A stretch of 64,000 bases of DNA, taken from the sequence record NZ_CP019224.1; one strand, 5' to 3'. Made by a program: the position numbers and the translations under genes. Below, in pieces: positions 1 to 13,552 of the stretch. The DNA is from a plasmid. The notes beneath the pieces were generated by a model. It did no database searches and was not told where the DNA came from. It saw nothing but the letters and a program-made list of their open reading frames with translations. Every line of letters starts with the position of its first letter. The stretch's first letter is position 1.

Positions 1-682
1 CGGTGTGTTGGGCGGCGGCGATCATGGCGTCACGCACGGCGACGTCGGCGGTGATGGCGATGCCGGCGCGGGTCGGTAGCGTGCGACTGATCTGGTGTCC
101 CTCGAGTGCGGCGGCGATCTCTGCTGCGGCACCGATGACAAGCTCGCCGTGGTCGCCGAGGGCGATCGGCGGGGCTGGCGGCAGGGGCGCGAATTCGGCT
201 TGGATGTCGCTGCGCGCCGGGCTGACTCGTTCACCGCCGAGCACCCGGTGCGCGGTGACCAGAGAGTCGGTGTAGGGGTAGGTGGGCCCGGTTGCGCCGG
301 TGTCGGGGTCGTACCACTGGCCTTCGGTGGTGACATCACGAGTCATCAGGCGGCGCAGCACTGGAATCCCGGCGGCGCGCAGCGCGTCGCTCAGGGCGTC
401 GAGGACGGTGACGGCATGCCATTCGTAGCTTTCGTCGCACACGGCCAGGAGCACGGCGGCGTGGTTAGTTTCGGGCCGCAGGTTGCATGTGGCCGGGAAG
501 TTGGTGGCTTGTTCGGCGCTGATCGTGACATCGAAGCGAATTGCGCTGCGGACCACCAGGTCGCTGGTGTGGGTGTCACGGTGCAGCATGTAGGCGACGA
601 CGCTGTTGGTGGGTGCGAAGCCCAGGAATGCTGCTGCGGCGGCAACGATGTCGGCTTCGGTGCGCAAGGCGGTGGTGGGCAT
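1..682 (-). CDS. hypothetical protein, N-terminal part only; C-terminus lies beyond the window start
   Basis: ATG at 682-680 sits at the same position relative to repeat A1 as the other cassette genes, with a GGAGAA RBS 8 nt upstream on the minus strand. The in-frame translation MPTTALRTEADIVAAAAFLGFAPTNSVVAYMLHRDTHTSDLVVRSAIRFDVTISAEQ... is protein-like and stays open to the window edge. It is absent from the ORF track because no stop codon falls in the window. Confidence 0.5.
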   Translation of the reverse strand, partial: MPTTALRTEADIVAAAAAFLGFAPTNSVVAYMLHRDTHTSDLVVRSAIRFDVTISAEQATNFPATCNLRPETNHAAVLLAVCDESYEWHAVTVLDALSDALRAAGIPVLRRLMTRDVTTEGQWYDPDTGATGPTYPYTDSLVTAHRVLGGERVSPARSDIQAEFAPLPPAPPIALGDHGELVIGAAAEIAAALEGHQISRTLPTRAGIAITADVAVRDAMIAAAQHT

Positions 683-1093
683 AGTGTTGTTCTCCGTTCT
701 GTGCGGTGAGTGGTGCGCCGGTCAGCGCTGGGGGAGTGGGCTAATCGGGTGAGGGTGGGCGGTCAACCCCGAAGAGTCCCGCGCCGAACGCAGCAGGGTT
801 TTCGGCCCGCGCTCGCCTGGCGCGATAGCGCCATCGGGCGAGCTGGCATAGGGCCGAAAAGGTCACTCGGCCTGCGTAGTTCGGTGTGGGCGTGGGTTGA
901 CCGGTCGGGCCCCCGGCCGATTAGACTGCGACCCCAGCTGACGGCAAACAAGGTGAGGGGCTACGGATTTGGTGGCCACCGGCAGGTGGCCAGTCCGGGC
1001 GCGCGGGGCGCGCCGGCACCTCAGCGGACCGGAAGAAAAAGGGGGGCCCGGCCAACCCCTCACGATGGGAGAAGTGGCCGGGCCCCGGGAATG
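683..1093 (-). repeat. structured intergenic cassette-boundary repeat, subtype A, copy A1 (about 411 bp)
   Basis: About 95% identical to 3038-3447 and 6181-6584. Same module order as the other copies: terminator, GC hairpins, covarying rod, RBS and start codon. Confidence 0.9.
1035..1088 (-). terminator. rho-independent terminator inside repeat A1 (minus strand)
   Basis: On the minus strand an 11-bp perfect stem gggcccggcca/tggccgggccc is followed by cccTTTTTcTT. It lies about 15-20 nt after the stop of gene 1104-1277. Confidence 0.55.
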
Positions 1094-1103
1094 GTGATAC
1101 GTG

Positions 1104-1277
1104 TCAGTCGATGTCGCAGGCGGCGTCGCGCAACGCCTCAAGTAGATCGACGTTCTCACCGAGAGTCATGGTGTCGTGCCCCCACTGGCTGTACGTGCCG
1201 GTGAGGGTGTCGATGTAGAACGGGATCTCAACGGTGCGGTTTTCGACACCGCGCGTGATGGTGCCCTCGATGATCAT
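1104..1277 (-). CDS. hypothetical small protein (57 aa)
   Basis: Start MIIEGTITRG at 1277 is preceded by an AAAGGAGA RBS. The upstream part of ORF 1104-1622 is Pro/Thr-rich junk. Confidence 0.5.
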   Translation of the reverse strand: MIIEGTITRGVENRTVEIPFYIDTLTGTYSQWGHDTMTLGENVDLLEALRDAACDID

Positions 1278-1311
1278 CGCGTATCTCCTTTCAGGGTGGG
1301 CGACTGCGGGT

Positions 1312-1770
1312 TTAGGCGCTCCGCCGATGGGCGGCGGGCAGGCTGATGCGGGTAATGCCCCACGGGGCGCGGTCGTAGCCAGAGAGCGCCTGGACCAACA
1401 TGTTCTGCAGCTCGCGGCAGAATGCGTAGGCCTCGGTGTGCTGCCAGTCCTTGGGTTCGCAGGCCTGATATTCGAAGCACTGCAACGCCTTGAGTACTTC
1501 GATGACCGACCAGCTGGTGTGCAGGGGCCGGGTGTAGCGGTACTCGTAGGGCTCGTGGATGGGGTTGTTGAAGTAGCAATAGTTGACCGAGGCGGTGTTG
1601 GCGTCGACGAGCATCTGGCCAACCTGGTCGAGGTTGTCGTCGGTGAGCTGGTTGACGCGGATCGGGTTGTCGAAGACCCAGGTCAGGTTGCCCAGCGGCC
1701 GGTGGAATCCTTGGTGGCCGGCCCACAGCAGGACGTTGATGTGTTCGGCTTCGACGACGTATGCGCTCAT
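1312..1770 (-). CDS. hypothetical protein (152 aa)
   Basis: ATG at 1770 lies immediately after repeat B1, with a GGAGAA RBS inside the repeat. Sequence MSAYVVEAEHINVLLWAGHQGFH.... The 55-aa N-terminal extension in the ORF track is a read-through of the repeat. Confidence 0.55.
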   Translation of the reverse strand: MSAYVVEAEHINVLLWAGHQGFHRPLGNLTWVFDNPIRVNQLTDDNLDQVGQMLVDANTASVNYCYFNNPIHEPYEYRYTRPLHTSWSVIEVLKALQCFEYQACEPKDWQHTEAYAFCRELQNMLVQALSGYDRAPWGITRISLPAAHRRSA

Positions 1771-2193
1771 TGGTGTGTTCTCCGTTTCGGATGGTGATGT
1801 GGTGCGCTGGTCAGCGCTGGGGTGCGGGTAAGCGGGTGAGGGTGGGCGGTCCACCCCGACGAGTCCCGCGGCGGGTGTTCGCCGGGTTTTGGGTCCGCGC
1901 TCGCCGGCGCGAAGCGCCCTTCGGCGAGCTGGCATTAGGACCCAAAACAGTCACTCGGCACGGCGAGGCCCGGTGTGGGCGTGGGTGGACCGGTCGGGGT
2001 CCCCACCCGCTTACCATGAGCGCCCCGCTGACGGCTTAAAAGGGTGAGGGGCTACGGATTTGGTGGCCACCGGCAGGTGGCCAGTCCGGTCGCGCGGGGC
2101 GCGCCGGCACCTCAGCGGACCGGAAGAAAAGGGGGGCCCGGCCACCCCCTCGTGGTGGGAGAGGCGGCCGGGCCCGGAGAGGTCCTTGGGTTA
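1771..2193 (-). repeat. structured intergenic cassette-boundary repeat, subtype B, copy B1 (about 423 bp)
   Basis: About 97% identical to 4920-5344 and to 7128-7444. It includes the stop codon and last two codons of the upstream gene at one end and the RBS at the other. Confidence 0.9.
2125..2178 (-). terminator. rho-independent terminator inside repeat B1
   Basis: GC stem ggcccggcc..ggccgggcc followed by a T-run on the minus strand, directly after the stop of gene 2191-2493. Confidence 0.5.
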
Positions 2194-2493
2194 GGTCAGG
2201 CCTGCCGCGCGGATGCGGTCGCGGATCAGCGCCAGGTCGACGCTCCGTTTTATTGGACTCACATAGTGACTGGCCCAATTTTCAAATCCGTTTATCGCGG
2301 CTTCCACTTCGCTTATTTGGACCTCAGGGCGGGTGATCGCGATTTCGTCCCCGTTCTCGCGGTCGTAGGCCTTGGCCACGACGGCGACAAGTTGTCCGAT
2401 TCCGTCGACAGTTTGTCGGAACCGCATCTTGCGGCGCTTGCCGTCGGCGGGGTCAATGAAGTACCAGCCTTGGCAGTAGTCGATGTCGGTCAT
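2191..2493 (-). CDS. hypothetical protein (100 aa)
   Basis: Internal start MTDIDYCQGWYFIDPADGKRRK at 2493 with an AAAGGA RBS 8 nt upstream. The upstream ORF portion is Pro-rich junk. Confidence 0.5.
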   Translation of the reverse strand: MTDIDYCQGWYFIDPADGKRRKMRFRQTVDGIGQLVAVVAKAYDRENGDEIAITRPEVQISEVEAAINGFENWASHYVSPIKRSVDLALIRDRIRAAGLT

Positions 2494-2575
2494 GTCGATC
2501 AGTCCTTTCTGGTCGGGATGGTACGCGGCCGGGCCGACGTTCACGTGTGACGCTGGCCCGGCCGCGAAAGTGGGG

Positions 2576-3037
2576 TTAGGCCGCCAGCAGGGCGGCGGCG
2601 GCAATGTGGTCGAGGGCGGTGTCGAGGTCCTCGTGGACGACGGAGGGTTGGTTGTCGACGGTGACGGTCCACATCGGCTGGTCGCCGATTCCGGCGGTCA
2701 GAGTGCAGGTGTGGCCGGCGTGGGCGGCGCGGTAGGACCAGTCGTGGCCGGGGACGGCGTGAAAGGTGAGTTCACTGGCGCGGACCTTGAGGATTCGGGT
2801 GTGCGGCTCGGTGTTGAGGTCAGGTGCGGTCGCCTCGACGGCGGCCATCTGACCGTGGGCATCGGTGGCGAACAGGACCAGGCGGTGCCCACTTTCGCGG
2901 GTGTAGTCATGCACGGTGGTGAGCCCGATGTCGCCGTGGTTGTGAAAGAGAATTCGGGTGATGCCGTACTGCTGGTCCTGGATGCGTCCTGCGGCCTCGT
3001 CGACGAGGTTGAAGGCGAGCTCGAATTCGTGATCCAT
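2576..3037 (-). CDS. hypothetical protein (153 aa)
   Basis: ATG at 3037 abuts repeat A2. Sequence MDHEFELAFNLVDEAAGRIQDQQYG.... Confidence 0.55.
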   Translation of the reverse strand: MDHEFELAFNLVDEAAGRIQDQQYGITRILFHNHGDIGLTTVHDYTRESGHRLVLFATDAHGQMAAVEATAPDLNTEPHTRILKVRASELTFHAVPGHDWSYRAAHAGHTCTLTAGIGDQPMWTVTVDNQPSVVHEDLDTALDHIAAAALLAA

Positions 3038-3447
3038 GATGTTTGTCCGTTCTGTGCGGTGAGTGGTGCGCCGGTCAGCGCTGGGGGAGTGGGCTAATCG
3101 GGTGAGGGTGGGCGGTCAACCCCGAAGAGTCCCGCGCCGAACGCAGCAGGGTTTTCGGCCCGCGCTCGCCTGGCGCGAAGCGCCATGGGGCGAGCTGGCA
3201 TAGGGCCGAAAAGGTCACTCGGCCTGCGTAGTTCGGTGTGGGCGTGGGTTGACCGGTCGGGGCCCCCGGCCGATTAGACTGCGACCCCAGCTGACGGCAA
3301 ACAAGGTGAGGGGCTACGGATTTGGTGGCCACCGCCAGGTGGCCAGTCCGGTCGCGCGGGGCGCGCCGGCACCTCAGCGGACCGGAAGAAAAAGGGGGGC
3401 CCGGCCAACCCCTCACGATGGGAGAAGTGGCCGGGCCCCGGGAATGA
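3038..3447 (-). repeat. structured intergenic cassette-boundary repeat, subtype A, copy A2
   Basis: Near-identical to A1 and A3. Rod closing helix 3074-3086 / 3285-3295. Confidence 0.9.
3387..3440 (-). terminator. rho-independent terminator inside repeat A2
   Basis: Stem gggcccggcca/tggccgggccc plus T-run on the minus strand, 20 nt after the TAA stop of 3459-4436. Confidence 0.55.
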
Positions 3448-3458
3448 TCTGAATGCCG

Positions 3459-4436
3459 TTATCCGTCAGTCATGGTGGTATCGCCGGCGGGGCGATGGCC
3501 GGAGATCTCGTGGTAGCCGATCCTGTCGGTCCACGAGGCCAGCTCGTGCCGGCGGACCGACACGGTTTTGGAGTTGACCCGAACCACGGGGTACCAGTGG
3601 CCGCGATACTTGATGAGGTCACCTTTGGTGATGCTGTCGCGGCTGTGCGGGTTGGCGGCGCCGGATGCTTGCAGATCCGCGTAAACCGCTTTCCAGTAGG
3701 CGATTTGATCGCCACGTTGGGCCATGCGCGCGATCACCTGTTCACGGTAGGACCCGGAGGCGGGGGCGAACTCGTCGACGTATTCGTAGGTGGCCGTGCG
3801 CGCGACGACGCGACGGTAACCATCGAGAATGCGTTGATCGCCACGTTGCTCGGCTTCCAACTTCTCGATGCGGTTCTTCACCGTCACCGGGTTGTAGCGG
3901 TGAGCGGTGGTGGTCGCGGCGGCCTGTGCGCGGCCCTGTGCCTGGTGGGCGAGATCGGTCGCGTCAATCGCGCGGCGGGTTGCGTCGTGGGCGCGGGTGA
4001 TCGCGTTACGGTGGCGGCTCTCGCTGTGATGGCCGATCTTGATCGGCTCTCCACCGGGAGGCAGGGCCTCTACGGCGCGCTGCTCGGATTCCCAGGCGGC
4101 CGAGGCGGCGGCGGCTTTGCGGTCGGCTTTGGCGGCCAGGGCGTCGGCGCGCTGCGCCTGGCGGTGAGCGCGGTCGGCTTCGGCCTCGGCTGTGGGGCGA
4201 TGAGTGTCGTCGACGTCGACAGTTACCGTGTGGCCGGCGGCGCGCAGCGATTCGGCGGCACGCTCGATTTTGTATCGGTTGGGTTGACGATCGCGGCTGC
4301 CGGCGATACCCCATACACCGAGTGTGCGAAACCAACGGAATCCGGCGGCTTTGAGGATGGTGTTGGTGCCGTCTCCGCGGGCGGTGCCGTGTACGAGGGT
4401 TCCTTCAGCGGCGGTGTGGGTGATTTCGATAGTCAT
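3459..4436 (-). CDS. hypothetical protein (325 aa), DUF3560-like, common on actinobacterial plasmids and phages
   Basis: Intact ORF MTIEITHTAAEGTLVHGTARGDGT... with an Ala/Arg-rich coiled central region. The family assignment is from memory, not a search. Confidence 0.55.
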   Translation of the reverse strand: MTIEITHTAAEGTLVHGTARGDGTNTILKAAGFRWFRTLGVWGIAGSRDRQPNRYKIERAAESLRAAGHTVTVDVDDTHRPTAEAEADRAHRQAQRADALAAKADRKAAAASAAWESEQRAVEALPPGGEPIKIGHHSESRHRNAITRAHDATRRAIDATDLAHQAQGRAQAAATTTAHRYNPVTVKNRIEKLEAEQRGDQRILDGYRRVVARTATYEYVDEFAPASGSYREQVIARMAQRGDQIAYWKAVYADLQASGAANPHSRDSITKGDLIKYRGHWYPVVRVNSKTVSVRRHELASWTDRIGYHEISGHRPAGDTTMTDG

Positions 4437-4556
4437 TGGTGTTGTGCTCCTGGTCTTTTCGGGTTGAGGGGTGGGGTTGTTGGGATGAAAAGAGCCCGGC
4501 CGGCTTCTGAGTGATGCGGAAACAGGCCGGGCCCCGAGTTCGTGGTGAGGGCGTTG

Positions 4557-4919
4557 TCACGCTGTGACGAGTTGTCGGTGCACGTTTCGGCTGGCGTTGC
4601 CTTGGGTCAACCCGAGTCGCGAGGCGACGCGTGCCACGGTCCGCGAGGTTGTGTGAAGGCGCCAGGCGATGAGCTCTGGGTCGATTCGGCCATACATGCG
4701 TCGCACGGCTTCGTCACGGTCTTTGCCGCGCAGCGGCAGGCGTAACCCGTCGTTGGCGACTTGCAGGACAGCAAGCTCGTCGACGTCGGCCATTCGGTCG
4801 TCTTCACGGTGCCGCTCGTGCCTGTGTGGGTCGTGTGCTGACGTCTCGGGGGAGGACAGTGCTTGGGCTTCGTCTGGGCCGGTGATGGCCCATGGGTCTG
4901 GGGTGCTGATAGTGGTCAT
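4557..4919 (-). CDS. hypothetical protein with C-terminal HTH (120 aa)
   Basis: ATG at 4919 abuts repeat B2. The C-terminus WRLHTTSRTVARVASRLGL has an HTH-like pattern. Confidence 0.5.
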   Translation of the reverse strand: MTTISTPDPWAITGPDEAQALSSPETSAHDPHRHERHREDDRMADVDELAVLQVANDGLRLPLRGKDRDEAVRRMYGRIDPELIAWRLHTTSRTVARVASRLGLTQGNASRNVHRQLVTA

Positions 4920-5344
4920 TGGTGTGTTCTCCGTTTCGGATGGTGATGTGGTGCGCTGGTCAGCGCTGGGGTGCGGGTAAGCGGGTGAGGGTGGGCGGTC
5001 CACCCCGACGAGTCCCGCGGCGGGTGTTCGCCGGGTTTTGGGTCCGCGCTCGCCGGCGCGAAGCGCCCTTCGGCGAGCTGGCATTAGGACCCAAAACAGT
5101 CACTCGGCACGGCGAGGCCCGGTGTGGGCGTGGGTGGACCGGTCGGGGTCCCCACCCGCTTACCATGAGCGCCCCGCTGACGGCTTAAAAAGGGTGAGGG
5201 GCTACGGATTTGGTGGCCACCGGCAGGTGGCCAGTCCGGTCGCGCGGGGCGCGCCGGCACCGTGTGAGCTGGAAGAAAAAGGGGGGGCCCGGCCAACCCC
5301 TCGTGGTGGGAGAGGCGGCCGGGCCCGGAGAGGTCCTTGGGTTA
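4920..5344 (-). repeat. structured intergenic cassette-boundary repeat, subtype B, copy B2
   Basis: Near-identical to B1. Rod closing helix 4959-4971 / 5172-5181. Includes the stop codon of 5342-5755. Confidence 0.9.
5274..5330 (-). terminator. rho-independent terminator inside repeat B2
   Basis: GC stem plus T-run on the minus strand after the stop of 5342-5755. Confidence 0.5.
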
Positions 5345-5755
5345 GTACGGGTGCAGCTCGGCGTTGACTTCAGCGGCGGCCTCGGCGACGTCGTTGAGCA
5401 GGTCGACTTCCGCTTCGTCGAGTCGAGCGACGTCGCAGGTGCTGTAGTTAGCGTGATCGAGGACCGCGCTGCGTTCTTCTCGCAGCGTGTGCAGTCGTTT
5501 GAGGGCCTGGTCGAGCTCAAGGCGGGGATGGGTTTCGCGGCGCACGTGCGCGATGACGTGGCCGAGGTAGTCGAGGATTTCGCGGCGACTTCCTTGCAGG
5601 GCGAGACCGTCGCCGTTTCCGTTCCACAGTCCCAGGACGAAGGGCCCGCTGACTGCATCTTCGTCCTCGGGGTGGAATTTCTCGATTGCCCGCTCGCGCG
5701 GGTGCAGGGTGTAGAGGCTGTCCGCGGCGTGGCCCCATTCGATGTGATTACTCAT
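5342..5755 (-). CDS. hypothetical protein (137 aa)
   Basis: Internal ATG at 5755 gives MSNHIEWGHAADSLYTLHPRERAIEKF.... The upstream ORF part is Arg/Pro junk. Confidence 0.5.
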   Translation of the reverse strand: MSNHIEWGHAADSLYTLHPRERAIEKFHPEDEDAVSGPFVLGLWNGNGDGLALQGSRREILDYLGHVIAHVRRETHPRLELDQALKRLHTLREERSAVLDHANYSTCDVARLDEAEVDLLNDVAEAAAEVNAELHPY

Positions 5756-5784
5756 GGTGGATGCCTTGTGTGAGGTAGGTGGTT

Positions 5785-6180
5785 TCAGGCGACGACGTGG
5801 GTCAGGTGCGCTTGGATGCGGTGGTCGAGTTTGAGAATCTCGATCATTGCCGGCGTCTCGGTGTGCTCGCGGCGGACCGCGACGTCGACGCGGGTGATGA
5901 TCGTGGCCGCGATGCCGGGATTGCCACCTTTGAGGGCGAACGCAGCGGCCAGGGTGAGGGCTTCGATTCGGGCCTGTCCGCTGAGGTGATCGCCGATACG
6001 GCCCCACAGCAGTGCGGCCCGTAGCGGCCGGCGCTCGGCGATCTTGTAGAGCAGGGTCTTATAGCTGTCGTCGACCAGGAGTGGGGCGGCGAGCTCGGCG
6101 AGGCCTCGGCTGGGGTTGCAGGTCCCGTTGACGAGTTGGTTACGCAGATCAGCCAGGATCGCGATGCGGTTGTAGCACAT
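5785..6180 (-). CDS. hypothetical protein (131 aa)
   Basis: ATG at 6180 abuts repeat A3. Sequence MCYNRIAILADLRNQLVNG.... Confidence 0.5.
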   Translation of the reverse strand: MCYNRIAILADLRNQLVNGTCNPSRGLAELAAPLLVDDSYKTLLYKIAERRPLRAALLWGRIGDHLSGQARIEALTLAAAFALKGGNPGIAATIITRVDVAVRREHTETPAMIEILKLDHRIQAHLTHVVA

Positions 6181-6584
6181 GATGTTTGTCCGTTCTGTGC
6201 GGTGATGTGGTGCGCTGGTCAGCGCTGGGGGAGTGGGCTAATCGGGTGAGGGTGGGCGGTCAACCCCGAAGAGTCCCGCGCCGAACGCAGCAGGGTTTTC
6301 GGCCCGCGCTCGCCTGGCGCGAAGCGCCATGGGGCGAGCTGGCATAGGGCCGAAAAGGTCACTGGGCCTGCGTAGTTCGGTGTGGGCGTGGGTTGACCGG
6401 TCGGGGCCCCCGGCCGATTAGACTGCGACCCCTGCTGACGGCAAATAAGGTGAGGGGCTACGGATTTGGTGGCCACCGGCAGGTGGCCAGTCCGGTCGCG
6501 CGGGGCGCGCCGGCACCTCAGCGGACCGGAAGAAAAGGGGGGCCCGGCCACCCCCCGATGGGAGAGGCGGCCGGGCCCGGAATG
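6181..6584 (-). repeat. structured intergenic cassette-boundary repeat, subtype A, copy A3
   Basis: Near-identical to A1 and A2, with small variation in the terminator loop. Confidence 0.9.
6531..6580 (-). terminator. rho-independent terminator inside repeat A3
   Basis: GC stem ggcccggcc/ggccgggcc plus T-run on the minus strand after the stop of 6588-7127. Confidence 0.5.
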
Positions 6585-6587
6585 TGT

Positions 6588-7127
6588 TCAGGCCGCTCGA
6601 TAGTCGGCGTCGGTGGGATCGGCTTTGTAGCGCTCACCGTCTGCGAAGACCGCGATCGCCACTCGGTGGACCTGTCGAAACGCGTCGATCATCGACAGGA
6701 TCGCGGCGCGGTCACGCAATTGCCAGGTGATCGGGCCGGTGTAGAGCTCGACCCAGTGCAGTTTCGCGGTCTTGAGCTTGTTGAGCGCCGACTGTGCCAC
6801 GACAGCGTAAGCCGGTGCCCTCGTCCACTCGACGCCGAGCACTGCGCGGCCGGCGGGCTCCTCGGCCACGGCTCCAGCGGTGGGGATTTCCGCGGGGACA
6901 TGGATCATCTGAGTGCGCGCAGCGACGAAGGCCTCGAGCAGGCCCTGGGCTGTCTGGCAGTTCTGCAGGCTCATGTGCATGCCGCCGACCGTGATGCCGA
7001 TACGGGCGGACGGGGTGCGGGCGTGGTGCACGGTGATGTCGGGTTCGAGCTGGCCTTTGATGGACACGATGCTGTGAGTAATGACGCCGGCCGGCGTGAC
7101 GTAAATGGGTGTGGCGGATTTCGTCAT
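6588..7127 (-). CDS. hypothetical protein (179 aa)
   Basis: ATG at 7127 abuts repeat B3. Sequence MTKSATPIYVTPAGVITHSIVSIKGQ.... Confidence 0.5.
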   Translation of the reverse strand: MTKSATPIYVTPAGVITHSIVSIKGQLEPDITVHHARTPSARIGITVGGMHMSLQNCQTAQGLLEAFVAARTQMIHVPAEIPTAGAVAEEPAGRAVLGVEWTRAPAYAVVAQSALNKLKTAKLHWVELYTGPITWQLRDRAAILSMIDAFRQVHRVAIAVFADGERYKADPTDADYRAA

Positions 7128-7444
7128 TGGTGTGTTCTCCGTTTCGGATGGTGATGTGGTGCGCTGGTCAGCGCTGGGGTGCGGGTAAGCGGGTGAGGGT
7201 GGGCGGTCCACCCCGACGAGTCCCGCGGCGGGTGTTCGCCGGGTTTTGGGTCCGCGCTCGCCGGCGCGAAGCGCCCTTCGGCGAGCTGGCATTAGGACCC
7301 AAAACAGTCACTCGGCACGGCGAGGCCCGGTGTGGGCGTGGGTGGACCGGTCGGGGTCCCCACCCGCTTACCATGAGCGCCCCGCTGACGGCTTAAAAGG
7401 GTGAGGGGCTACGGATTTGGTGGCCACCGGCAGGTGGCCAGTCC
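7128..7444 (-). repeat. structured cassette-boundary repeat, subtype B, copy B3, truncated
   Basis: Homology to B1/B2 ends abruptly after the tggccaccggcaggtggcca hairpin at about 7444. The GC hairpin and terminator modules are missing. Confidence 0.85.
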
Positions 7445-7599
7445 CAGCGGCTGTACGCTGGTGTGATGTTTGAAGAGGCCTTCGCGCGTGACCTCATGAA
7501 GGGGCCGCAGGGTGTTGCGGTGCCGGCGATGACCTGGTTGGTGACCGGGCAGTGGCCGGTACCGGAGTTGAGCTTCGACGTGTCGTATCCGCGAGCTGA

Positions 7600-8328
7600 T
7601 TACTCGGGATTGCTGGCGTTTTGACCGGGTCGTTCGGGCGCGCTAAGTGCGCGAAGGCCACTGGATAGTGAGGCGAAGCGGCCGTACTGTTGGCCGGCGG
7701 CGGTGGTTTTTTCACCTAGCCAAATCCCGATGATTTGCGCGTAACCCTGTGAGGTTGGCGTCCACACCGGGCCTCCGGAGTCACCGGGGATGCTGGGCGG
7801 CATCCCTGTGGTCAGGTATTGGTCTCGGCCTTGGGCGGCCGCGATTTGTCCGCAGTGCTGTCCGCTGGAAACTCCGATGCGGCAGACAGTTTCGCCGACT
7901 TGGGGTTCGGGATGGTCGTCGGTAAAGAGCGTGTGGTTGGCGTCGATGAAGGCCGATGCCATGGAGTTGGTGTTGAAGTCGATCAGCGCGTAGTCGGCGC
8001 CGCCGCTGCGCGGCGACTCGAAAATGGTGCGCACGAACTTGCCGGTGAGTCCGCTTCGCTTGTCGCGCGCATAGCCTGACGCGGGGTCAGAGCGGCAGTG
8101 GGCGGCGGTGATGGCGTAGGTGTGCAGGTCCGCGCCGGTGTAGACGTAGCCGATGGTGCAGAACTGGTTGCCTCCGGTGGGGTTGATGTAGTCGACCTCT
8201 TCGCCGGGGCTGACCACGGCTAGCGCGGCGTGTGCCGAGGGTGGACCGGCTAGAGCCAGAGTTGCTGCGGTGAGCACCCCTGCGGCGGCGGCGAATCGGC
8301 GGGTGATGGCGTGCATGAGTGGGGTCAC
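7600..8328 (-). CDS. secreted trypsin-like (S1 family) serine protease
   Basis: Signal peptide MTPLMHAITRRFAAAAGVLTAATLALAGPPSAHA, catalytic His motif TAAHC, GDSGGPV serine motif, and conserved Cys pairs. Confidence 0.75.
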   Translation of the reverse strand: MTPLMHAITRRFAAAAGVLTAATLALAGPPSAHAALAVVSPGEEVDYINPTGGNQFCTIGYVYTGADLHTYAITAAHCRSDPASGYARDKRSGLTGKFVRTIFESPRSGGADYALIDFNTNSMASAFIDANHTLFTDDHPEPQVGETVCRIGVSSGQHCGQIAAAQGRDQYLTTGMPPSIPGDSGGPVWTPTSQGYAQIIGIWLGEKTTAAGQQYGRFASLSSGLRALSAPERPGQNASNPE

Positions 8329-8506
8329 CTTTCCGGGGGTTAGGCGGCGCGAGTGTGGCGCAGGCGACGCTCGGAGCGTAGTTGGGCGCGGGCGGTCATG
8401 CTGTCGATCCAGGCGCGGGCGGTGTTGGCGGCGGGCCCGGGCCGGCCCGGCGCTGCGGCGATGGCTGCGGCCGCGCGGTTGGTGATGGCGATCTCGAAAC
8501 GCGTTG

Positions 8507-9796
8507 TCATGCAGACTCCTTCAACCGATCATGGCCAGCGTGTATCGCTGGCCTGCGTGTGTTGTTCCGGTAGTCAGTGGTGAGCTGCTCGAGGAGGGCA
8601 TCAATGGCGGCCGCCTCGGCGCGCTGCCTGGGTGAGGGCTGCTCGCCGATGTCGTGGTGCAGGTCTTGGTGGGTGTGTTGCACTGTGCGCAGTTGTTCGG
8701 CGGCTTCGGCGAGCCATCGTGCGGCGTTGCGTGCGCTGCCGGGTACCAGGCCGCGACGGTCCTGGTGCGCGCGGGCTTCCTGCAGGGCGACGTCGAAACG
8801 CTCGGCGGCCACCCGGGCTTTGGCGGCCGCGGCCAAGGTGTGCAGTTCGGCGGGCGTGATGACGGAAAGGCCTCCGAAAAGCTCGGCGCGGTTCCACAGG
8901 CCGGCGTTGACGTGATCGGTGACGTCGGCTTTGTCGACGTCGAGGGCGGGTAAGAGCACCACGACTTGGGCAGTGATGCTGCGTAGGCGTGCATAGAGGT
9001 TGATCGCCCGCTGATAACCGGCGAGGTCTCGGTCGGCGACGATGGCGACCTTGAGTCCGGCGAAGTCGTCGACGAGTTCGGCGGGGAAGTTGGCGGCTCC
9101 TTGGGCGTTGGTGGTGGCCAGCCGGCCGAGTGCAGTCAGGGTGTCGGCGTCTTTTTCACCTTCGGTGACCCATATCCATGCGCCGCGTGTGGCTGCGGCC
9201 GCAATTGCGGCGGGCCGGTATAACACCGGGGTGAATCCGTACGGCTTGCGGTACACCCACTGGCCTCCGTCGCGGTAGCGCTGCCGGAACTGTTTGTGGG
9301 GTCGACCAGTGCATGCGCATTCTTCGCGGACGACCTGCTGCACCGGGGTTCCCGTGGGGGTCAGGTAGGTGTAGACCCGGGCCCGGCGCCAGTGGTGGTT
9401 GGTGTCTTCGCGCCCCGCGGTGATGCGTGCGGGTAACGGCCCTGGCCCAGGAGTTCGCCTGGCCCTGGGCTGCGTGACGCGAGGCCAGCGTTGCCCGGTT
9501 GCGGGGCTGGGGTTGTCGAACAGATCGGCCAGGCGCAGACCCAGTGCGGCCGCGATGGCGGCCGCGGGGGCTTGGCAGCTAAAGCAGTGCAGCAGGACCG
9601 CACCGCCAGTGCCGGCGCGGGTGTTTTCTCGCCACCCAACCGACAGCGAGGGGCAGTGGTCGGTGTGCAGGGGGCAGCTGGCCATGAAGGCCTCCGAACC
9701 ACGCGGGCGGATGGCGTGCCCCGCTGCTTGCAGGGCGTCCCGCACGTGGTCCAAAGCGGCTCCGGGACTGTGGAGTTGGTGTGCGCTCGCCATCAC
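8507..9796 (-). CDS. DNA primase, CHC2 zinc finger plus Toprim domain (plasmid/phage type)
   Basis: CPLHTDHCPSLSV...CFSC zinc-binding motif, then Toprim WVTEGEKDADTL and IVADRDLAG. Confidence 0.7.
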   Translation of the reverse strand: MMASAHQLHSPGAALDHVRDALQAAGHAIRPRGSEAFMASCPLHTDHCPSLSVGWRENTRAGTGGAVLLHCFSCQAPAAAIAAALGLRLADLFDNPSPATGQRWPRVTQPRARRTPGPGPLPARITAGREDTNHHWRRARVYTYLTPTGTPVQQVVREECACTGRPHKQFRQRYRDGGQWVYRKPYGFTPVLYRPAAIAAAATRGAWIWVTEGEKDADTLTALGRLATTNAQGAANFPAELVDDFAGLKVAIVADRDLAGYQRAINLYARLRSITAQVVVLLPALDVDKADVTDHVNAGLWNRAELFGGLSVITPAELHTLAAAAKARVAAERFDVALQEARAHQDRRGLVPGSARNAARWLAEAAEQLRTVQHTHQDLHHDIGEQPSPRQRAEAAAIDALLEQLTTDYRNNTRRPAIHAGHDRLKESA

Positions 9797-10086
9797 GGTG
9801 TCTCCTGATCGATAACGGTGTGCACCACCGCGTAGGCCGCACGGGTGTGGCGAATGCTCTCGTCGAGGAAGGTGGCAACATCGCGGCCATCGCGACCCTC
9901 CACAAACTCGACGTCGTAGACGCTGTTGCTGCGCAGCTGCGCCAAGGCGCCACTCGCGTCTTGCAGGGCCTTGACTGCCGTAGAGATGTGGGAAAGCAGA
10001 TGGCTTCGCGTTTCAGCGATTCGCTCGATGGCGTCGAGCTCGGTGAACTCGGCGACGGCTTGCTCAAGCGCGGTGTCGGTGTGCAT
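9793..10086 (-). CDS. hypothetical small protein (97 aa)
   Basis: ORF overlaps the primase start by 4 nt, suggesting translational coupling. No recognisable motif. Confidence 0.4.
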   Translation of the reverse strand: MHTDTALEQAVAEFTELDAIERIAETRSHLLSHISTAVKALQDASGALAQLRSNSVYDVEFVEGRDGRDVATFLDESIRHTRAAYAVVHTVIDQETP

Positions 10087-10119
10087 GGGTGTGAGTCCTT
10101 TCGGTCAGGGGTGCAGCTG

Positions 10120-10353
10120 TTAGGCGGCGGCCAGGCCGGCCAAGCGATCCGGGCGGAACCCCGACCAATGCACCGTGGGCGAGACATAGACGACGGGTGC
10201 GCCCAGATAGCCCAGACTCATGACGTATTCGCGGGCCTCTGGGTGCTCGGTCACGTCGACTTTCTGGTAACTGATTCCCTTTTTATCCAGCGCCCGGAAA
10301 GTCGCGTTGCACTGCACGCAGGCAGGTTTTGTATAAACAGTGATCGGGGACAT
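10120..10353 (-). CDS. nrdH: NrdH-like glutaredoxin/redoxin (77 aa)
   Basis: MSPITVYTKPACVQCNATFRALDKKGISYQKVDV has a CxxC motif in a thioredoxin-fold context. A strong RBS GAAGGAGG lies 6 nt upstream of ATG 10353. Confidence 0.65.
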   Translation of the reverse strand: MSPITVYTKPACVQCNATFRALDKKGISYQKVDVTEHPEAREYVMSLGYLGAPVVYVSPTVHWSGFRPDRLAGLAAA

Positions 10354-10785
10354 TACGAGCCTCCTTCGCAAATGGTTGGTGCTGCGATTGATAATTCAAT
10401 ATTACTGCCGTGATTGTCCTTATGCCATAGCCGGGAGAAAGAAATTCGACCACTTATCGACATTCTTTGGAGCTGCTTCCCGACACGTATGCGCCATTCT
10501 CTTGGGCGGTGAGCTCTGCTCAACATCGGTGAGGAGAAAGCGTGTACTACCAGCCTCGTTGAGGCGGCCAGCGCCGACTACGGCTCGCCTTTGAGCCAAC
10601 CGGAACCCTACATACAGATTCAGGCTGATTCTCGCCCAGGACGATCTGGCGGTAACCGTAGCGCGACAACATACTCGCCAGTGATGCCTATCCACGTTCG
10701 CCTTTCATTCACCATGCGCCAACCACAGATGTGACTCATTACCGTATTCCTTCGATAGCGCTTCCTGTTATTTGATGCCATTCTT

Positions 10786-10980
10786 TTGCCCTTCTGGCAT
10801 TGGGGATATAGACCGGCCCGCGGGTCGTGGAATGCAAGGCCCGGGCGCGAAGTTTTCCCAGTGAGCGCCAGCGAGCGGCTTGGGGAAAAGTTCGCGAGCC
10901 ACCGGCCCGCAGCAGCGCGGAGGCCGGCGCCTTGCAAGTAGCGACCCGGCCGGTCAGAATCGAAAGCCCAGAAGGCAGAA
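10786..10980. repeat. inverted-repeat-flanked element of about 195 bp, copy 1 (downstream of the parB-like gene)
   Basis: Termini ttgcccttctggca ... gcccagaaggcag are inverted. About 70% identical to 12814-13003. Confidence 0.7.
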
Positions 10981-11116
10981 CGTGTTTAGCCGCCAACGGC
11001 GGGCATCGTGATGCTGCTGCCGCCGCAGCGAACACGCAGCAGGGCATGACGGGGGCGGATCGCCATCGCCCAAGGTGGGGCCAGAGCCGCAGCCCTGACC
11101 CCACCCGAGCGGCGCG

Positions 11117-12763
11117 CTACTCCTTTACCGCATCAGCCAAGTACTGCTCATACACCTCGTCGGTGCTTTTGGCCTTGGTCACGACTTCCTCGACGGGAGC
11201 CAGCGGATAGTCGTTGTCGGCGAGCCAGCGCAGGTACTCAGCGCCGCCGACGTGATGGCCCCACCAGCCGCTGTTGTTGCGCCAAGCATCCTTGGGGGTG
11301 CGCGATTCGAGCGCACCGAGAATCAGGCCCAGCGTGATCACCTGCGCGCGTGCGTCGCCGTTGGCGGGTAGCTCGGCCACGAGCTTGGCCACGGCCTGGC
11401 CGCTGTCGAGTCCGAGCAGTTCGGCGGTGGTGTCCAGCGCGTTGTTGTTCGTGAGCAACGCACTGTCACGGGCCAAGCAGTCCGCCACGAAGAGACCGGC
11501 GCCCTTGGGAGGTGTCTTTCGCGCCAACAGCTTCTTGACGAAATCACGCCGCACGCCAAGGGCCGCATCACCGAGCTTGTTGAGCGCCAACACTTTACGG
11601 CGCTCACGCTTTTCGGTCTCGGCCCGCTCGATCGCCGCCTGCTGGCGTGCGGCTTCGCGGGCCTCGTCGTCCAGGTCGACTGCTTCGCCGGTGTCGGTGT
11701 CCACCAGCCCGGCTTGCCGCGCGAACCAGCTCTGCGGCGTCAGACCGGCGGCGCGGTAGTCGAGGCAGTAGTAATCGGGAGTGAACACCTGCGCCTCGGT
11801 GACCGTGTTGGCGTGGCGCATCCCCTCTGCGGGTGTGGCGTCCGGCTGATCCTCGGTCTCCCAGTCCACGCTCTCTTCGTCAATCACTTCACCGGTTTCC
11901 ACGTCGCACCATGCGGTGTCCTCAACGAGCAACACAGCCCAATGGGCGGGGTGCGTCACCGCGTCGTCGTCGGCTTCCTCCCCGTCAGCGGTCACCAGGT
12001 GATGCAGCGGGATGCAAGCCGGGTCCCACGAATCCGGGCGCTGCTCAAGGAGAGTGAACCCCTTGTCGGCGTAGGCCGGGGCCACTTGGGCGCGGGCCTC
12101 GTCAGTGGCACGTTGCTGGCGCAGTTGGGCGACCGTGTGCTCGAACCAGCCGCTGTCAGCCGCACTCATCAGCCGCTCAACGGCACCGGGCATGTCCTCA
12201 AACTCGGTGATCGCCGCCGCTTCGACCAGGCTCAGCTGGCCACTAGCCAGCGCATCCATGGCCGTCGCCGACCGCGAGGCCGTGTGGGCGGCCTTCACAG
12301 CGTCCTTGCCCACAGACAGCTTCTTGGCCACCTTGGTCACCGACATCCCCGCATCGATCATCTGCTGGATACCGCGCGCCCGTTGCGCGTCGGTGATGTC
12401 GAGCTTTTGATCGTTGGTGACGATCTGGTGCACGATGCGGTCGATGGTTTCCTGGGTGGCATCGGCAGCAGTGGACGGCAGCACATAGACGGGGACGCTG
12501 GATAATCCCGCTTCGCGGGCAGCAAGAGTGCGCCGCTGTCCGTTGCGGACACGGATGACCTCGGGCCGTTCCGCGTCGCGGACAGCCGTAATCGGCACCA
12601 GGACGCCATTTTCGGCGATGTTGGCGATGAACGCCTTGCTCAGCGCGGCATCGTCGCGAACATTGTCACCAATGTCGAGCAACGCCGGATCAAGGTGTTC
12701 CAAGGTGCCGATCGGCTGGTCAGTGGCATTGCCCGCAGTGTCGGTGCTGGTGATGTCGGTCAT
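11117..12763 (-). CDS. ParB/Srx-domain protein (548 aa), KorB/ParB-like
   Basis: N-terminal ParB box VRNGQRRTLAAREAGLSSVPVYVL, with a long acidic C-terminal extension. Confidence 0.7.
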   Translation of the reverse strand: MTDITSTDTAGNATDQPIGTLEHLDPALLDIGDNVRDDAALSKAFIANIAENGVLVPITAVRDAERPEVIRVRNGQRRTLAAREAGLSSVPVYVLPSTAADATQETIDRIVHQIVTNDQKLDITDAQRARGIQQMIDAGMSVTKVAKKLSVGKDAVKAAHTASRSATAMDALASGQLSLVEAAAITEFEDMPGAVERLMSAADSGWFEHTVAQLRQQRATDEARAQVAPAYADKGFTLLEQRPDSWDPACIPLHHLVTADGEEADDDAVTHPAHWAVLLVEDTAWCDVETGEVIDEESVDWETEDQPDATPAEGMRHANTVTEAQVFTPDYYCLDYRAAGLTPQSWFARQAGLVDTDTGEAVDLDDEAREAARQQAAIERAETEKRERRKVLALNKLGDAALGVRRDFVKKLLARKTPPKGAGLFVADCLARDSALLTNNNALDTTAELLGLDSGQAVAKLVAELPANGDARAQVITLGLILGALESRTPKDAWRNNSGWWGHHVGGAEYLRWLADNDYPLAPVEEVVTKAKSTDEVYEQYLADAVKE

Positions 12764-12813
12764 GGTTGAACCTTTCTGGGTGGGTCAGGCGTCCGCATGG
12801 CCGCCTGTTCTGT

Positions 12814-13003
12814 TTGCCTTCTGGCAATTGAGATTTGGGCCGGCATAGGGACGCGGAGTGCAAGGTCCGGGCGCACAGTTGGCCGCCGCGAGCGAAGCGA
12901 GCGTGCCGGGGAACTGTGCGAGCCTTGTGCCCGAAGCGAAGCGCAGGCCGTGGCCTTGACGCGAAGCGGACCGCCGGCATAATCGAAAGCCAGAAAGGCA
13001 AAC
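12814..13003. repeat. inverted-repeat-flanked element, copy 2 (immediately upstream of the parB-like gene)
   Basis: Termini ttgccttctggcaa ... gccagaaaggcaa. Carries internal cgaagcg iterations. Confidence 0.7.
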
Positions 13004-13339
13004 AAACATGGGCTTGGGCAAGGCCCAAGCCATTCAGCAGCGCCGCAGGCGCTTCAACTTCAATTCCCCGCTACCATCGCAAAAATGCGGCTTGTGCAGA
13101 CCCGGCGCGGGTGGGAAGAACACCGCCCGTCGCACTGTCCGGAATGCGGCGCGCAACTCGGAGCGCACCAGGTGCTCGTTGGCATAGCACACTGCCGTTG
13201 CGAACGACGAATGCACCGCTCACACCGTTGCCAGCACTGCCAGTACACGATTTACACGCCGTCCCTTGGTGATTCGTGCACGCTGCAAGCTCTTGATGGA
13301 CGTTAAAGGCGGCGCCGGAATGTCTTAATTGCCCAACGC

Positions 13340-13552
13340 TTATGAATGGAGCTGGGATAACAGGGGCATGAGGTACTTGCCGACAGGGTCGAAGATGAAC
13401 ATGGCGGCCCAGACCATGGCGTCCATCACGGCGGTGGCGATGAGAGCCGAGACCGGCGCCCGCATGATGCGCAGGATCAGCAACGGCGCCATGATGCCGG
13501 TGACGTTTATCAGGATTAGTACCAGAATCTGCATTCGCTCGGCCTTCACCAT
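13340..13552 (-). CDS. possible small hydrophobic membrane protein (70 aa)
   Basis: Two predicted TM segments, MVKAERMQILVLILINVTGIMAPLLILRIM.... It sits in a local low-GC patch next to the recombinase. Could be spurious. Confidence 0.3.
   Translation of the reverse strand: MVKAERMQILVLILINVTGIMAPLLILRIMRAPVSALIATAVMDAMVWAAMFIFDPVGKYLMPLLSQLHS

Follow-up and report, generated by a model that had tools for sequence, protein, structure and literature searches.

What does the hairpin-forming repeat between the small genes of a mycobacterial plasmid do, and is it RNA or DNA that folds? We addressed this question for the copy at 3074-3295 of the window, by which we mean the whole 64,000-nt stretch analysed from plasmid record NZ_CP019224.1. 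A sequence-only reading had proposed that this copy forms a conserved rod that acts either as a folded RNA (a cis-regulatory leader or processing site) or as a folded single strand of DNA (a recombination or replication site such as attC). Folded single strands can also carry promoters. Six single-stranded DNA (ssDNA) promoters in three classes, confirmed by 5' RACE, drive the leading operons of the plasmids pESBL and F (PMC12672017). In F, the leading genes have the transferred strand (T-strand) as their template (PMC9849209, PMC11541004).

Results

The repeat belongs to a gene array beside mobF in mycobacterial plasmids

The window derives from a conjugative plasmid that resembles pMyong1 and pRAW, and it shares 91.5% identity with pMyong1 over 80% of its first 24 kb. 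The repeat was found at 180 places in 33 plasmids, all of them from Mycobacteriaceae, with 6-16 copies per plasmid. An exact-pattern scan of species genomes returned Mycobacteriaceae, two MAGs labelled uncultured Actinomycetota and one Mesorhizobium contig, which is probably contaminated, and nothing else. A phage collection searched with the repeat gave no match.

The array consists of small genes that all run in one direction and adjoin the MobF relaxase gene. mobF lies directly left of the array in all nine loci where it is visible, and both mobF and the array genes are on the minus strand. One orientation is common to all 93 repeat copies of the window and 12 further loci, and the copies within each of the additional genome loci also agree in orientation. 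Cassette content and order vary among plasmids. Six class-1 rods of about 222 nt each are present in the window, with subtypes A and B taking turns along the array (Table 1), and the distance from rod to ATG is constant at 37-40 nt in all six. When ten array proteins were searched against Pfam, only DUF3560 was recognised, together with weak matches to DUF4192 and DUF7368. The matches of a tblastn search with the DUF4192 protein were confined to mycobacterial plasmids. A search for oriT between mobF and the array of pMyong1 yielded only short, uninformative inverted repeats.

Table 1. Positions of rods, promoter-like boxes, helices and flanking elements in the window
Feature	Position	Strand	Description
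Class-1 rod, subtype A (feature under study)	3074..3295	+ (template strand of genes)	222-nt hairpin; folds, covariation; 37 nt upstream of minus-strand start codon at 3037
-35-like hexamer	3249..3254	+	TTGACC; 3' arm, fully paired with GGTCAA 3114-3119
-10-like hexamer	3275..3280	+	TAGACT; 3' arm, ACT half opposite GGG (mismatch or wobble)
Closing helix, A copy	3074-3079 : 3290-3295		gtcagc : gctgac
Helix, A copy	3094-3101 : 3270-3277		ctaatcgg : ccgattag
Helix, A copy	3114-3121 : 3247-3254		ggtcaacc : ggttgacc
Helix, A copy	3152-3161 : 3203-3212		ttttcggccc : gggccgaaaa
Short leader	3035..3073	-	ribosome-binding site and ATG (3037-3035); part of repeated unit
Conserved spacer module, rod to terminator	3305..3386	+	GGTGAGGGGCTAC, a palindrome, a GC hairpin
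Palindrome in spacer module	3325-3344		TGGCCACC-N4-GGTGGCCA
Intrinsic terminator of upstream cassette	3387..3439	-	GC hairpin, then T run on minus strand
Class-1 rod, subtype A (A1)	721..942	+	-35 897-902 TTGACC; -10 922-927 TAGACT
Gene downstream of rod 721..942	start 682		DUF4192 homologue
Intrinsic terminator, cassette upstream of rod A1	1034..1086	-
Class-1 rod, subtype B (B1)	1810..2032	+	-35 1986-1991 TGGACC; -10 2012-2017 TACCAT; gene start 1770
Intrinsic terminator upstream of rod B1	2124..2176	-
Class-1 rod, subtype B (B2)	4959..5181	+	-35 5135-5140; -10 5161-5166 TACCAT; gene start 4919
Intrinsic terminator upstream of rod B2	5273..5327	-
Class-1 rod, subtype A (A3)	6218..6439	+	-35 6393-6398; -10 6419-6424; gene start 6180
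Intrinsic terminator upstream of rod A3	6531..6578	-
Class-1 rod, subtype B, rightmost	7167..7389	+	-35 7343-7348; -10 7369-7374; gene start 7127
Class-2 rod upstream of nrdH-toprim-protease operon	10781..10984	+	TTGCAA-17-CAGAAT; 3' arm, 10932-10960
Class-2 rod upstream of ParB-like gene (start 12763)	12806..13010	+	TTGACG-16-CATAAT; 3' arm, 12956-12983
Terminator beside class-2 rod 12806..13010	13011-13031	-

The nested fold is conserved and under selection

The helices described in the sequence-only reading could be read off the A copy at the places given there, and the B copy at 4959-5181 holds compensated versions of them. The region 3060-3310 folded on either strand as a single long rod that was more stable than shuffled controls. 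The + strand reached -82.2 kcal/mol as DNA (z = -7.6; none of 200 shuffles was as stable), and the minus strand reached -125.3 kcal/mol as RNA (z = -6.5). The B copy behaved in the same way on both strands. The cut-off in raw folding energy that was applied to pESBL, -75 kcal/mol per 300 nt, did not discriminate in this GC-rich DNA, where background 300-nt windows averaged -64 +/- 11 kcal/mol and a few unrelated regions went down to -94. The evidence for the fold was therefore taken from the shuffle z-scores and from covariation.

Covariation was examined in 49 copies, less than 96% identical, drawn from the window and 12 plasmid loci. Using a 65-pair rod that was itself derived from the 49-copy alignment on which the pairs were counted, 86.3% of the cells were paired, compared with 76.1% in shuffles and 37-48% when the partners were slid. 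Both sides had changed in 42 pairs. Compensated cells numbered 301 against 124 +/- 9 in shuffles, and the covariation score was 0.298 against 0.147. On each of the five pairing and covariation measures, all 500 shuffles fell short of the observed value. RNAalifold with default settings on the MAFFT alignment returned only 22 pairs because of indels among the diverged copies, and the full rod was obtained with a relaxed-penalty consensus. Rfam 15, searched at gathering scores over both strands of the whole window, contained no matching family. The apical hairpin, which had been described as invariant, is not: the copy at 721-942 reads ggcgcgatagcgcc there, and in the 49-copy alignment no other part of the rod varies as much between plasmids as the apex, which is often deleted or expanded. 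These results show that the nested rod of about 220 nt is conserved and under selection among mycobacterial plasmids.

The + strand is the strand selected to fold

We compared the two strands in 57 class-1 copies. The + strand was the more stable in all 57 under both RNA and DNA parameters, at -74 vs. -60 kcal/mol with DNA parameters and -142 vs. -112 with RNA parameters. The whole-window + strand also folds slightly better than the minus strand (-65 vs. -60), so that the strand asymmetry of the rods is partly compositional. In-register G:T pairs on the + strand outnumbered A:C pairs by 305 to 31, and the corresponding ratios in slid controls were about 1.3-3.9, or roughly 2:1. These results indicate that the + strand is the strand selected to fold. 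For all array genes this is the template (antisense) strand and not the mRNA strand. Because pairing selection acts on a strand that is antisense to every gene, the proposal of a folded RNA leader or processing site is disfavoured.

The 3' arm of the rod carries promoter-like boxes

Two promoter-like hexamers were found on the 3' arm of the rod, and they run in apex-to-base order. In the rod at 3074..3295, they are 20 nt apart on the 3' arm, and the matching interval on the opposite, template arm measures 17 nt. Just 13 columns of the 49-copy alignment never vary, among them T3249 and G3251 of the -35-like box and A3276 (A-11) and T3280 (T-7) of the -10-like box. All 57 class-1 copies have a stem-paired T[TG]G[AC]NN followed 19-20 nt on by [TC]ANNNT, with a template-arm spacer of 16-17 nt. 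The mycobacterial -10 element follows the rule TANNNT, and the xANNNT of the rods follows this rule and not TATAAT. Two features count against the promoter reading: the non-template spacer of 19-20 nt exceeds the usual 16-18 nt, and about 40% of the class-1 copies have C instead of T at -12. The mirror xANNNT on the sense strand is possible in only one of the 57 copies and is defective in the other 56. In the predicted fold, the rod thus appears as a stem in which -35 and -10 are rebuilt and aimed into the downstream gene.

The repeat unit supplies a terminator and a translation start

The unit has the order terminator, rod, ribosome-binding site and ATG. A terminator precedes five of the six rods in the window, which means that those cassettes need a start signal of their own; the rightmost rod lacks the terminator module. 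A scan for sigma-70-type promoters over 600-7700 on both strands found no site, and TANNNT on the sense strand was nearly absent from 91 units (5 of 91 spacers, 5 of 91 rods and 1 of 91 leaders). An ordinary duplex promoter for the array genes was rejected on these two results. We also considered a small + strand ORF that starts at TTG 3322 behind the SD-like GGTGAGGGG in the spacer region. It was rejected, as one-base indels in an A/G run break the frame, near-identical copies differ in frame and the last copy lacks the whole region.

A second class of rods has the same geometry

Two class-2 rods lie further along the window (Table 1). The TTGACG-16-CATAAT of the second matches at 10 of 12 positions and is the top promoter-like site in 7400-16000. 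It sits inside the 3' arm of the rod on the "wrong" strand for the ParB gene, that is, antisense to it. The pattern TTGnnn-16/17-xAxAAT with A-11 unpaired is kept in 22 of 24 unique class-2 copies, and all 24 fold more stably as the + strand than as the minus strand. In 16 unique high-scoring copies, pairing extends to 94% of the cells, with 85 G:T against 8 A:C pairs. Class-2 rods therefore have the same geometry as class-1 rods, with boxes nearer to the consensus.

Discussion

We consider it likely that the rods are ssDNA promoters of the Frpo/ssp kind and that they form new, sequence-unrelated families in Actinomycetota. This reading draws on the array and mobF context, the single orientation, the strand bias, the anatomy of the boxes, the lack of a sense promoter, the class-2 rods, the covariation and the precedent in other plasmids. 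The suggestion of a folded single strand of DNA was thus right in kind, and the anatomy fits a leading-region promoter, not an attC-like recombination site. Against the latter speak the position of the -35 and -10 boxes on the 3' arm, the terminator, ribosome-binding site and ATG that come with every unit, a rod length of 222 nt, which exceeds that of attC sites, and the Xer-like nature of the only tyrosine recombinase nearby.

The proposed mechanism would begin with the MobF relaxase nicking an oriT left of the array, whereupon the + strand of the window would enter the recipient 5' end first. Ahead of complementary-strand synthesis, the inverted repeat of about 222 nt is predicted in silico to fold into a rod. 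This rod would recreate a duplex promoter with the 3' arm as non-template and the 5' arm as template strand, in which a paired TTGnnn would be followed after 19-20 nt by xANNNT, with A-11 or T-7 mismatched or bulged out. The host's RNA polymerase, carrying its primary sigma factor, may then initiate near the base of the rod and leave the hairpin along the single-stranded 5' flank. The expected product would be an mRNA with a leader of about 45-55 nt and with the ribosome-binding site and ATG of the repeat; it would encode the downstream establishment or anti-defence cassette and stop at that cassette's own terminator. Once the strand had been copied, the hairpin would be gone, and expression would cease because the sense strand keeps only a crippled -10 box. 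The transcripts may additionally prime complementary-strand synthesis.

The closest precedents are the Frpo/ssi/ssp elements of IncF and IncI1 plasmids (F, ColIb-P9, pESBL). They lie in the leading region, beside oriT and the gene of a MOBF relaxase; the mycobacterial array likewise adjoins mobF, and its leading-region position beside an oriT is presumed. They are present in multiple copies, six in pESBL compared with six class-1 rods here, and form large stable stem-loops of the template strand of the downstream genes, in which -35 and -10 are rebuilt. Small establishment or anti-defence genes follow, including those for DUF932 and ParB-like proteins, which occur in the leading regions of both F and the mycobacterial plasmids, and the elements are likewise predicted to be inactive as duplex (PMC9849209, PMC11541004, PMC12672017). 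The F plasmid also has the layout of the array, with leading genes facing oriT and tra genes facing away. However, the mycobacterial rods share no sequence similarity with these elements, and a search of the F leading region (52-68 kb) with HMMs of class 1 and class 2 gave no match at a cut-off as loose as E <= 10. The rods differ further in their Actinomycetota host, in a G+C content of about 70%, in a -10 of xANNNT rather than TATAAT, in reaching 16 copies per plasmid, in cassettes bounded by intrinsic terminators, in a repeat that supplies the ribosome-binding site and ATG, and in alternating subtypes. The promoters of pESBL and F are confirmed by 5' RACE, and the mycobacterial rods are predicted in silico. 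As a control we folded F Frpo2, and its T-strand rod was recovered (-110 vs. -102 kcal/mol); the published boxes were not confidently placed, and the sole box-like pair lay on the 5' arm near the apex, in contrast to the 3' arm near the base in the mycobacterial rods. The geometry may thus differ from that of Frpo, or the scan may have missed the real boxes.

A different comparison is offered by EGeRS1 of the pLS20 family in Bacillus, a GC-rich repeat of 400-600 bp that contains several inverted repeats and is predicted to fold very stably. Four to six copies per plasmid each stand ahead of an operon of small establishment genes; they have no constitutive duplex promoter, and they stop read-through from upstream (PMC8708921). 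The authors of that study ruled out an ssDNA-promoter mechanism for pLS20 because the folded form contained no promoter and the repeated structured regions are on a transferred strand that is non-template (PMC8708921). The architecture of our unit matches the description of EGeRS1 in silico, and a relationship in sequence is not expected, but the folded mycobacterial strand is the template strand and has clear -35 and -10 boxes. It is nevertheless conceivable that the unit is an EGeRS1-like module that regulates establishment genes at the duplex or RNA level. Such a module would insulate cassettes from read-through, its + strand duplex promoter might make antisense RNA that silences the upstream cassette, and the cassettes would owe their sense expression to an inducible or alternative-sigma promoter outside the recognised types. 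The unit of about 400 nt, GC-rich and with multiple inverted repeats in 6-16 copies, is close to the published description, as is its place upstream of establishment operons with a terminator and no constitutive promoter (PMC8708921). Moreover, the + strand boxes in duplex form, notably TTGACG-16-CATAAT, amount to a normal promoter facing away from the gene. We regard this explanation as unlikely, because a duplex promoter or protein-binding site does not account for covariation along 65 pairs, for G:T being ten times as frequent as A:C on one strand or for the placing of the -10 A or T in a mismatch, and an antisense promoter has no need of a 220-nt hairpin.

Three further explanations were weighed. 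The minus-strand RNA also forms the rod (-125 kcal/mol, z = -6.5), and a position between terminator and start codon would suit a 5' leader of the mRNA, or an element between its cistrons, whose structure serves processing, stabilisation or attenuation, or else processive antitermination, by which polymerase would be carried past the cassette terminators. This is quite improbable, since the minus strand is the less stable one in 57 of 57 copies, the G:T pairs of the + strand become A:C mismatches in the mRNA, the invariant unpaired bases spell a -10 pattern on the + strand, Rfam gave no match and no conserved sense promoter lies upstream to make such a leader. A single-strand replication signal without a promoter role, either an ssi priming site or a roadblock for complementary-strand synthesis, has parallels in Frpo transcripts, which can prime DNA synthesis, and in F ssp2, which stalls complementary-strand synthesis (PMC12672017; bioRxiv 10.64898/2026.01.09.698686), and on the strand presumed to be transferred the rods form hairpins of great stability. 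Replication and promoter roles are compatible and not mutually exclusive. As the sole function it is very improbable, because it leaves unexplained the fixed 37-40 nt to the start codon, the ribosome-binding site and ATG inside the repeat and the single rod for each terminator-bounded cassette. The least credible proposal, to which we give hardly any weight, is that the rods are attC-like recombination sites in an array resembling an integron, or that they are selfish palindromes of the MITE/REP kind. Like attC sites, the rods are imperfect palindromes that would act as folded single strands between same-direction cassettes; plasmids differ in cassette content and order, and a tyrosine recombinase gene is nearby (13671-14771). 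However, the product of this gene scored 162 bits with the XerC model and 32 bits with the integron-integrase model, for which the cut-off is 265. Integron identity was rejected, as this Xer-like gene is the only tyrosine recombinase nearby and no integron integrase adjoins the array. At 222 nt the rod is also far longer than attC sites, which measure roughly 60-140 nt, every cassette comes with a terminator, a ribosome-binding site and a start codon of its own, and the conserved unpaired bases form a promoter pattern and not extrahelical recombinase marks. Unlike MITEs, 93 of 93 copies are co-oriented, lie only in the leading region and keep a fixed distance to the start codon.

An extension of the ssDNA-promoter reading, possible though rather doubtful, is that the state of the DNA sets the direction of the rod promoter: sense from the ssDNA hairpin, and antisense across the upstream cassette from the duplex. 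The + strand boxes in duplex form (for example TTGACG-16-CATAAT) would then fire in the opposite direction, giving an active shut-off and not a mere lapse of expression, and the terminator-rod-RBS-ATG unit would be a portable junction for cassette shuffling. If this is true, the mycobacterial leading region would be a self-timed, modular anti-defence array.

So far, ssDNA promoters have been shown only in E. coli-type plasmids, and the mycobacterial rods most likely do the same, turning on the genes that enter first before the second strand is made. If confirmed, ssDNA promoters and zygotic induction of leading-region genes would reach beyond Enterobacterales into Actinomycetota, and the transferred strand and the direction of transfer would be predicted. 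It would also give a first mechanistic handle on the establishment of pRAW-type plasmids, which need type IV and type VII secretion and are exchanged among slow-growing mycobacteria, in the laboratory also with M. tuberculosis (PMC4173767). The more than 90 natural variants would indicate which hairpin-promoter positions the mycobacterial polymerase needs, and the EGeRS1 repeats of Bacillus plasmids would gain a case for contrast. Finally, each plasmid's roughly 10-25 small genes without a known function would become candidate anti-defence or establishment genes of mycobacteria; those in the arrays include DUF932, DUF4192, DUF3560 and DUF3846 genes and many without a family.

A family of long hairpins under selection

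The imperfect inverted repeat at 3074-3295 folds into a single long rod. As DNA, its + strand (the strand given) reached -82.2 kcal/mol (z = -7.6 against 200 dinucleotide shuffles), and its minus strand as RNA -125.3 kcal/mol (z = -6.5). A sequence-only reading of this stretch had proposed a nested rod-like fold with compensatory changes between two subtypes, A and B. The helices that it named are present, the A/B differences at them are compensated, and folding is better than in the shuffled controls; a subtype B copy likewise folded on both strands. The apical hairpin, which it took to be invariant, reads ggcgcgatagcgcc in the first copy, and the apex is the most variable part across related plasmids. 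Six such rods (class 1) lie in the window in the strict order A, B, A, B, A, B.

Profile searches of the window and 12 plasmid loci found 93 class-1 copies, which share a single orientation, and copies on further genome contigs were co-oriented within each contig. For covariation, 49 copies less than 96% identical were aligned. With default settings, RNAalifold recovered just 22 pairs from the indel-rich MAFFT alignment, and relaxed penalties were therefore used. On the resulting 65-pair structure, scored on the same alignment from which it was derived, 86.3% of cells were paired, against 76.1% after shuffling and 37-48% with the partners slid. Compensated cells numbered 301 (shuffled, 124 ± 9; slid, 73-110), and the covariation score was 0.298 (shuffled, 0.147; slid, 0.06-0.08). 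Both sides had changed at 42 pairs, and on all five measures the observed value was equalled by none of 500 shuffles. These results indicate that the class-1 fold is under selection.

Features of the array and its right flank
Feature	Position	Strand	Remark
Class-1 rod	721-942		subtype A
Class-1 rod	1810-2032		subtype B
Class-1 rod	3074-3295		subtype A
-35-like box	3249-3254	+	TTGACC, in the rod at 3074-3295
-10-like box	3275-3280	+	TAGACT, in the rod at 3074-3295
Class-1 rod	4959-5181		subtype B
Class-1 rod	6218-6439		subtype A
Class-1 rod	7167-7389		subtype B
Small palindrome of conserved spacer	3344-3325	minus	
Intrinsic terminator of upstream cassette	3439-3387 (example)	minus	GC hairpin and T run
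Leader	between rod and ATG		37-40 nt, with ribosome-binding site
Class-2 rod	10781-10984	+	upstream of nrdH-toprim-protease operon; 3' arm TTGCAA-17-CAGAAT
Class-2 rod	12806-13010	+	upstream of ParB-like gene; 3' arm TTGACG-16-CATAAT; preceded by minus-strand terminator

The A/B alternation also runs along the array of plasmid pMyong1 (L001, 11180-19499), and adjacent direct repeats there and here are only about 80% identical; it is absent from pMAH135. Alternation may reduce cassette loss through homologous recombination. At 3070-3083, GCGCCGGTCAGCGC could form a small local hairpin as a rival to the closing helix of the rod. Transcription starting near 3080-3086 would place the complement of this hairpin, as a stem-loop, at or close to the mRNA 5' end.

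The strand that folds

In all 57 copies, the + strand, antisense to the genes, was the stabler of the two, with means of -74 vs -60 kcal/mol under DNA parameters and -142 vs -112 under RNA parameters. Over the whole window, it was only slightly better folded (-65 vs -60). The 65-pair register held 305 G:T and 31 A:C cells, and the mismatches fall on the mRNA strand of the rods. Since sliding the partners by 1-3 columns dropped the G:T/A:C ratio to about 1.3-3.9, composition alone explains a ratio of about 2:1, not 10:1. This strand evidence was the key step away from an RNA leader or processing site, one of the options that the sequence-only reading had offered.

Promoter-like boxes on the 3' arm

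Sigma-70-type factors recognise the -35 box by its TTG and the -10 box by A-11 and T-7, the last two flipped out on the non-template strand. On the class-1 3' arm, a fully paired T[TG]G[AC]NN is followed after 19-20 nt by [TC]ANNNT in all 57 copies; the matching spacer on the facing 5' arm is 16-17 nt. The 49 diverged copies share 13 invariant columns, four of which are T3249, G3251 (first and third bases of TTG), A3276 and T3280. The -35 box is always helical. The A and T of the -10 box are kept while their partners vary or are missing, with T-7 opposite G or nothing in most copies. In the mirror hexamer on the sense strand, A at position 2 together with T at position 6 occurs in just one copy of 57.

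In such a promoter, the non-template strand would be the 3' arm, running from the apex down to the base, and the 5' arm would serve as template. Polymerase would exit at the hairpin base and proceed on the single-stranded 5' flank, which is complementary to the downstream gene; in duplex DNA, these boxes would face away from the gene. The geometry of the predicted promoter is coherent, with the long non-template spacer and a C at -12 in about 40% of copies counted as caveats.

Folding of the two long intergenic regions right of the array located rods of a second class. The box pair in front of the ParB-like gene agrees with the consensus at 10 of 12 positions and was the top promoter-like site of the scan tool in 7400-16000, on the strand opposite to the gene. 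Related plasmids have 26 class-2 copies, which lie upstream of ParB, nrdH-operon and DUF932 genes and share the orientation of the array in every case. TTGnnn-16/17-xAxAAT with A-11 unpaired was present in 22 of 24 unique copies, and the + strand was the stabler in all 24. In the 16 unique high-scoring copies, 94% of cells were paired (32-45% slid), and G:T to A:C was 85 to 8 in register but about 1:1 slid. The second class confirms the class-1 pattern.

The repeated unit and its missing sense promoter

All genes within 1-13000 lie on the minus strand, along which each unit runs from a terminator through a spacer with a small palindrome, the rod and a leader to the next gene's ATG. The scan tool predicted intrinsic terminators at five units, and neither strand of 600-7700 gave a sigma-70-type promoter. 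A cassette bounded by terminators needs its own start signal, and no ordinary one is present. Sense-strand TANNNT is scarce, occurring in 5 spacers, 5 rods and 1 leader among 91 units of the window and related plasmids. The array proteins are mostly without family; those that can be named are DUF3560, DUF4192, DUF3846 and DUF932.

In five of six units, a module (3305-3386 here) carries a conserved GGTGAGGGGCTAC directly 3' of every rod, then the palindrome TGGCCACC-N3/4-GGTGGCCA and a GC hairpin. This module may serve as an operator for a plasmid regulator, for instance the ParB-like protein, or be an additional single-strand structure. Cassette content is mosaic between 391-7127 and the comparison loci L001, L005, L010 and L018. 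The DUF3560 cassette (3459-4436) is found in pMAH135 and an M. gordonae plasmid and is absent from pMyong1. Only two other loci have the gene at 5342-5755, and the cassettes are in shuffled order in the M. gordonae plasmid.

Distribution and an F-like layout

The repeat occurs at 180 places in 33 plasmids, all of Mycobacterium, Mycolicibacterium or Mycobacteroides, and phages gave no match. Over its first 24 kb, the window is 91.5% identical to pMyong1, with 80% of that length covered. The window and its relatives are pRAW-like conjugative plasmids, which carry relaxase, type IV and type VII secretion loci and need both secretion systems for conjugation (PMC4173767). The MobF relaxase gene lies immediately left of the array in 9 of 9 loci with a relaxase gene in view, and there the minus strand encodes both it and every array gene. 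The F plasmid map has the same layout, leading genes toward oriT and tra genes away, and DUF932 and ParB-like genes are common to both regions. In F, the leading genes have the transferred strand as their template, and an oppositely oriented gene is expressed only once the DNA is duplex (PMC9849209).

Two class-1 rods lie in L022, a 4144-bp record labelled Mesorhizobium qingshengii (NZ_JAPFQA010000044.1), most likely a mycobacterial plasmid contaminating that assembly. Five lie within a chromosome-sized record of M. interjectum (L017, NZ_LT546237.1, 4.99 Mb), either as an integrated copy of such an element or as a plasmid joined into the scaffold.

Predicted single-stranded-DNA promoters

We consider the rods to be probable single-stranded-DNA promoters of the Frpo kind. 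The sequence-only reading had also proposed a folded single strand of DNA; that part stands, with a predicted promoter in place of its recombination site. Such promoters were first shown for Frpo of F, and three classes are now described in F and pESBL. They are large stem-loops in which the transferred strand re-forms -35 and -10 boxes; leading genes are expressed from them early and transiently, until the strand has been copied and the promoters become silent (PMC9849209, PMC11541004, PMC12672017). The literature searched on them did not mention mycobacteria or Actinomycetota, nor did the pRAW and mycobacterial plasmidome literature mention these repeats. The rods do not resemble the F leading region in sequence and would therefore be new families of a known kind, outside the Frpo sequence family.

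F Frpo2, folded as a control, gave the T-strand rod (-110 vs -102 kcal/mol). The published boxes could not be placed in it, the only candidate being on the 5' arm near the apex, and the geometry of the rods may differ from that of Frpo2. The closest published analogue of the whole unit is EGeRS1 of the Bacillus plasmid pLS20, repeated structured regions upstream of establishment operons (PMC8708921). EGeRS1 resembles the unit yet lies on the non-template transferred strand (PMC8708921), and mainly for this reason our confidence is good rather than high. The promoter reading would be of moderate to high interest to plasmid biologists and mycobacterial geneticists.

Both the strand evidence and the lack of a sense promoter upstream count against an mRNA leader, a processing site or an antitermination RNA. 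Transcripts from promoters of the Frpo kind may also prime complementary-strand synthesis, which hairpins of this sort can stall (bioRxiv 10.64898/2026.01.09.698686). A priming site or replication roadblock may be a second role of the rods; alone, it would leave the fixed rod-to-ATG distance unexplained. An attC-like recombination site, also suggested by the sequence-only reading, is unlikely, since the nearby recombinase is of the Xer type, the rod is longer than such sites and each cassette comes with a terminator and a start of its own. That the copies share one orientation and a fixed position rules out a selfish repeat. An antisense promoter in duplex DNA may be an additional function, and forms the basis for a less probable reading of the rods as state-dependent, direction-switching promoters.

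A lone tRNA-Val(GAC) gene lies at 38837-38918, in a region that also has 120-nt direct repeats (38773-38892, 44852-44971). Other direct-repeat families, outside the leading region at 28141-29538 and 45846-48391 (four of 300 nt at 66-70% identity; two to three copies at 79-99%) probably fall inside repetitive coding genes.
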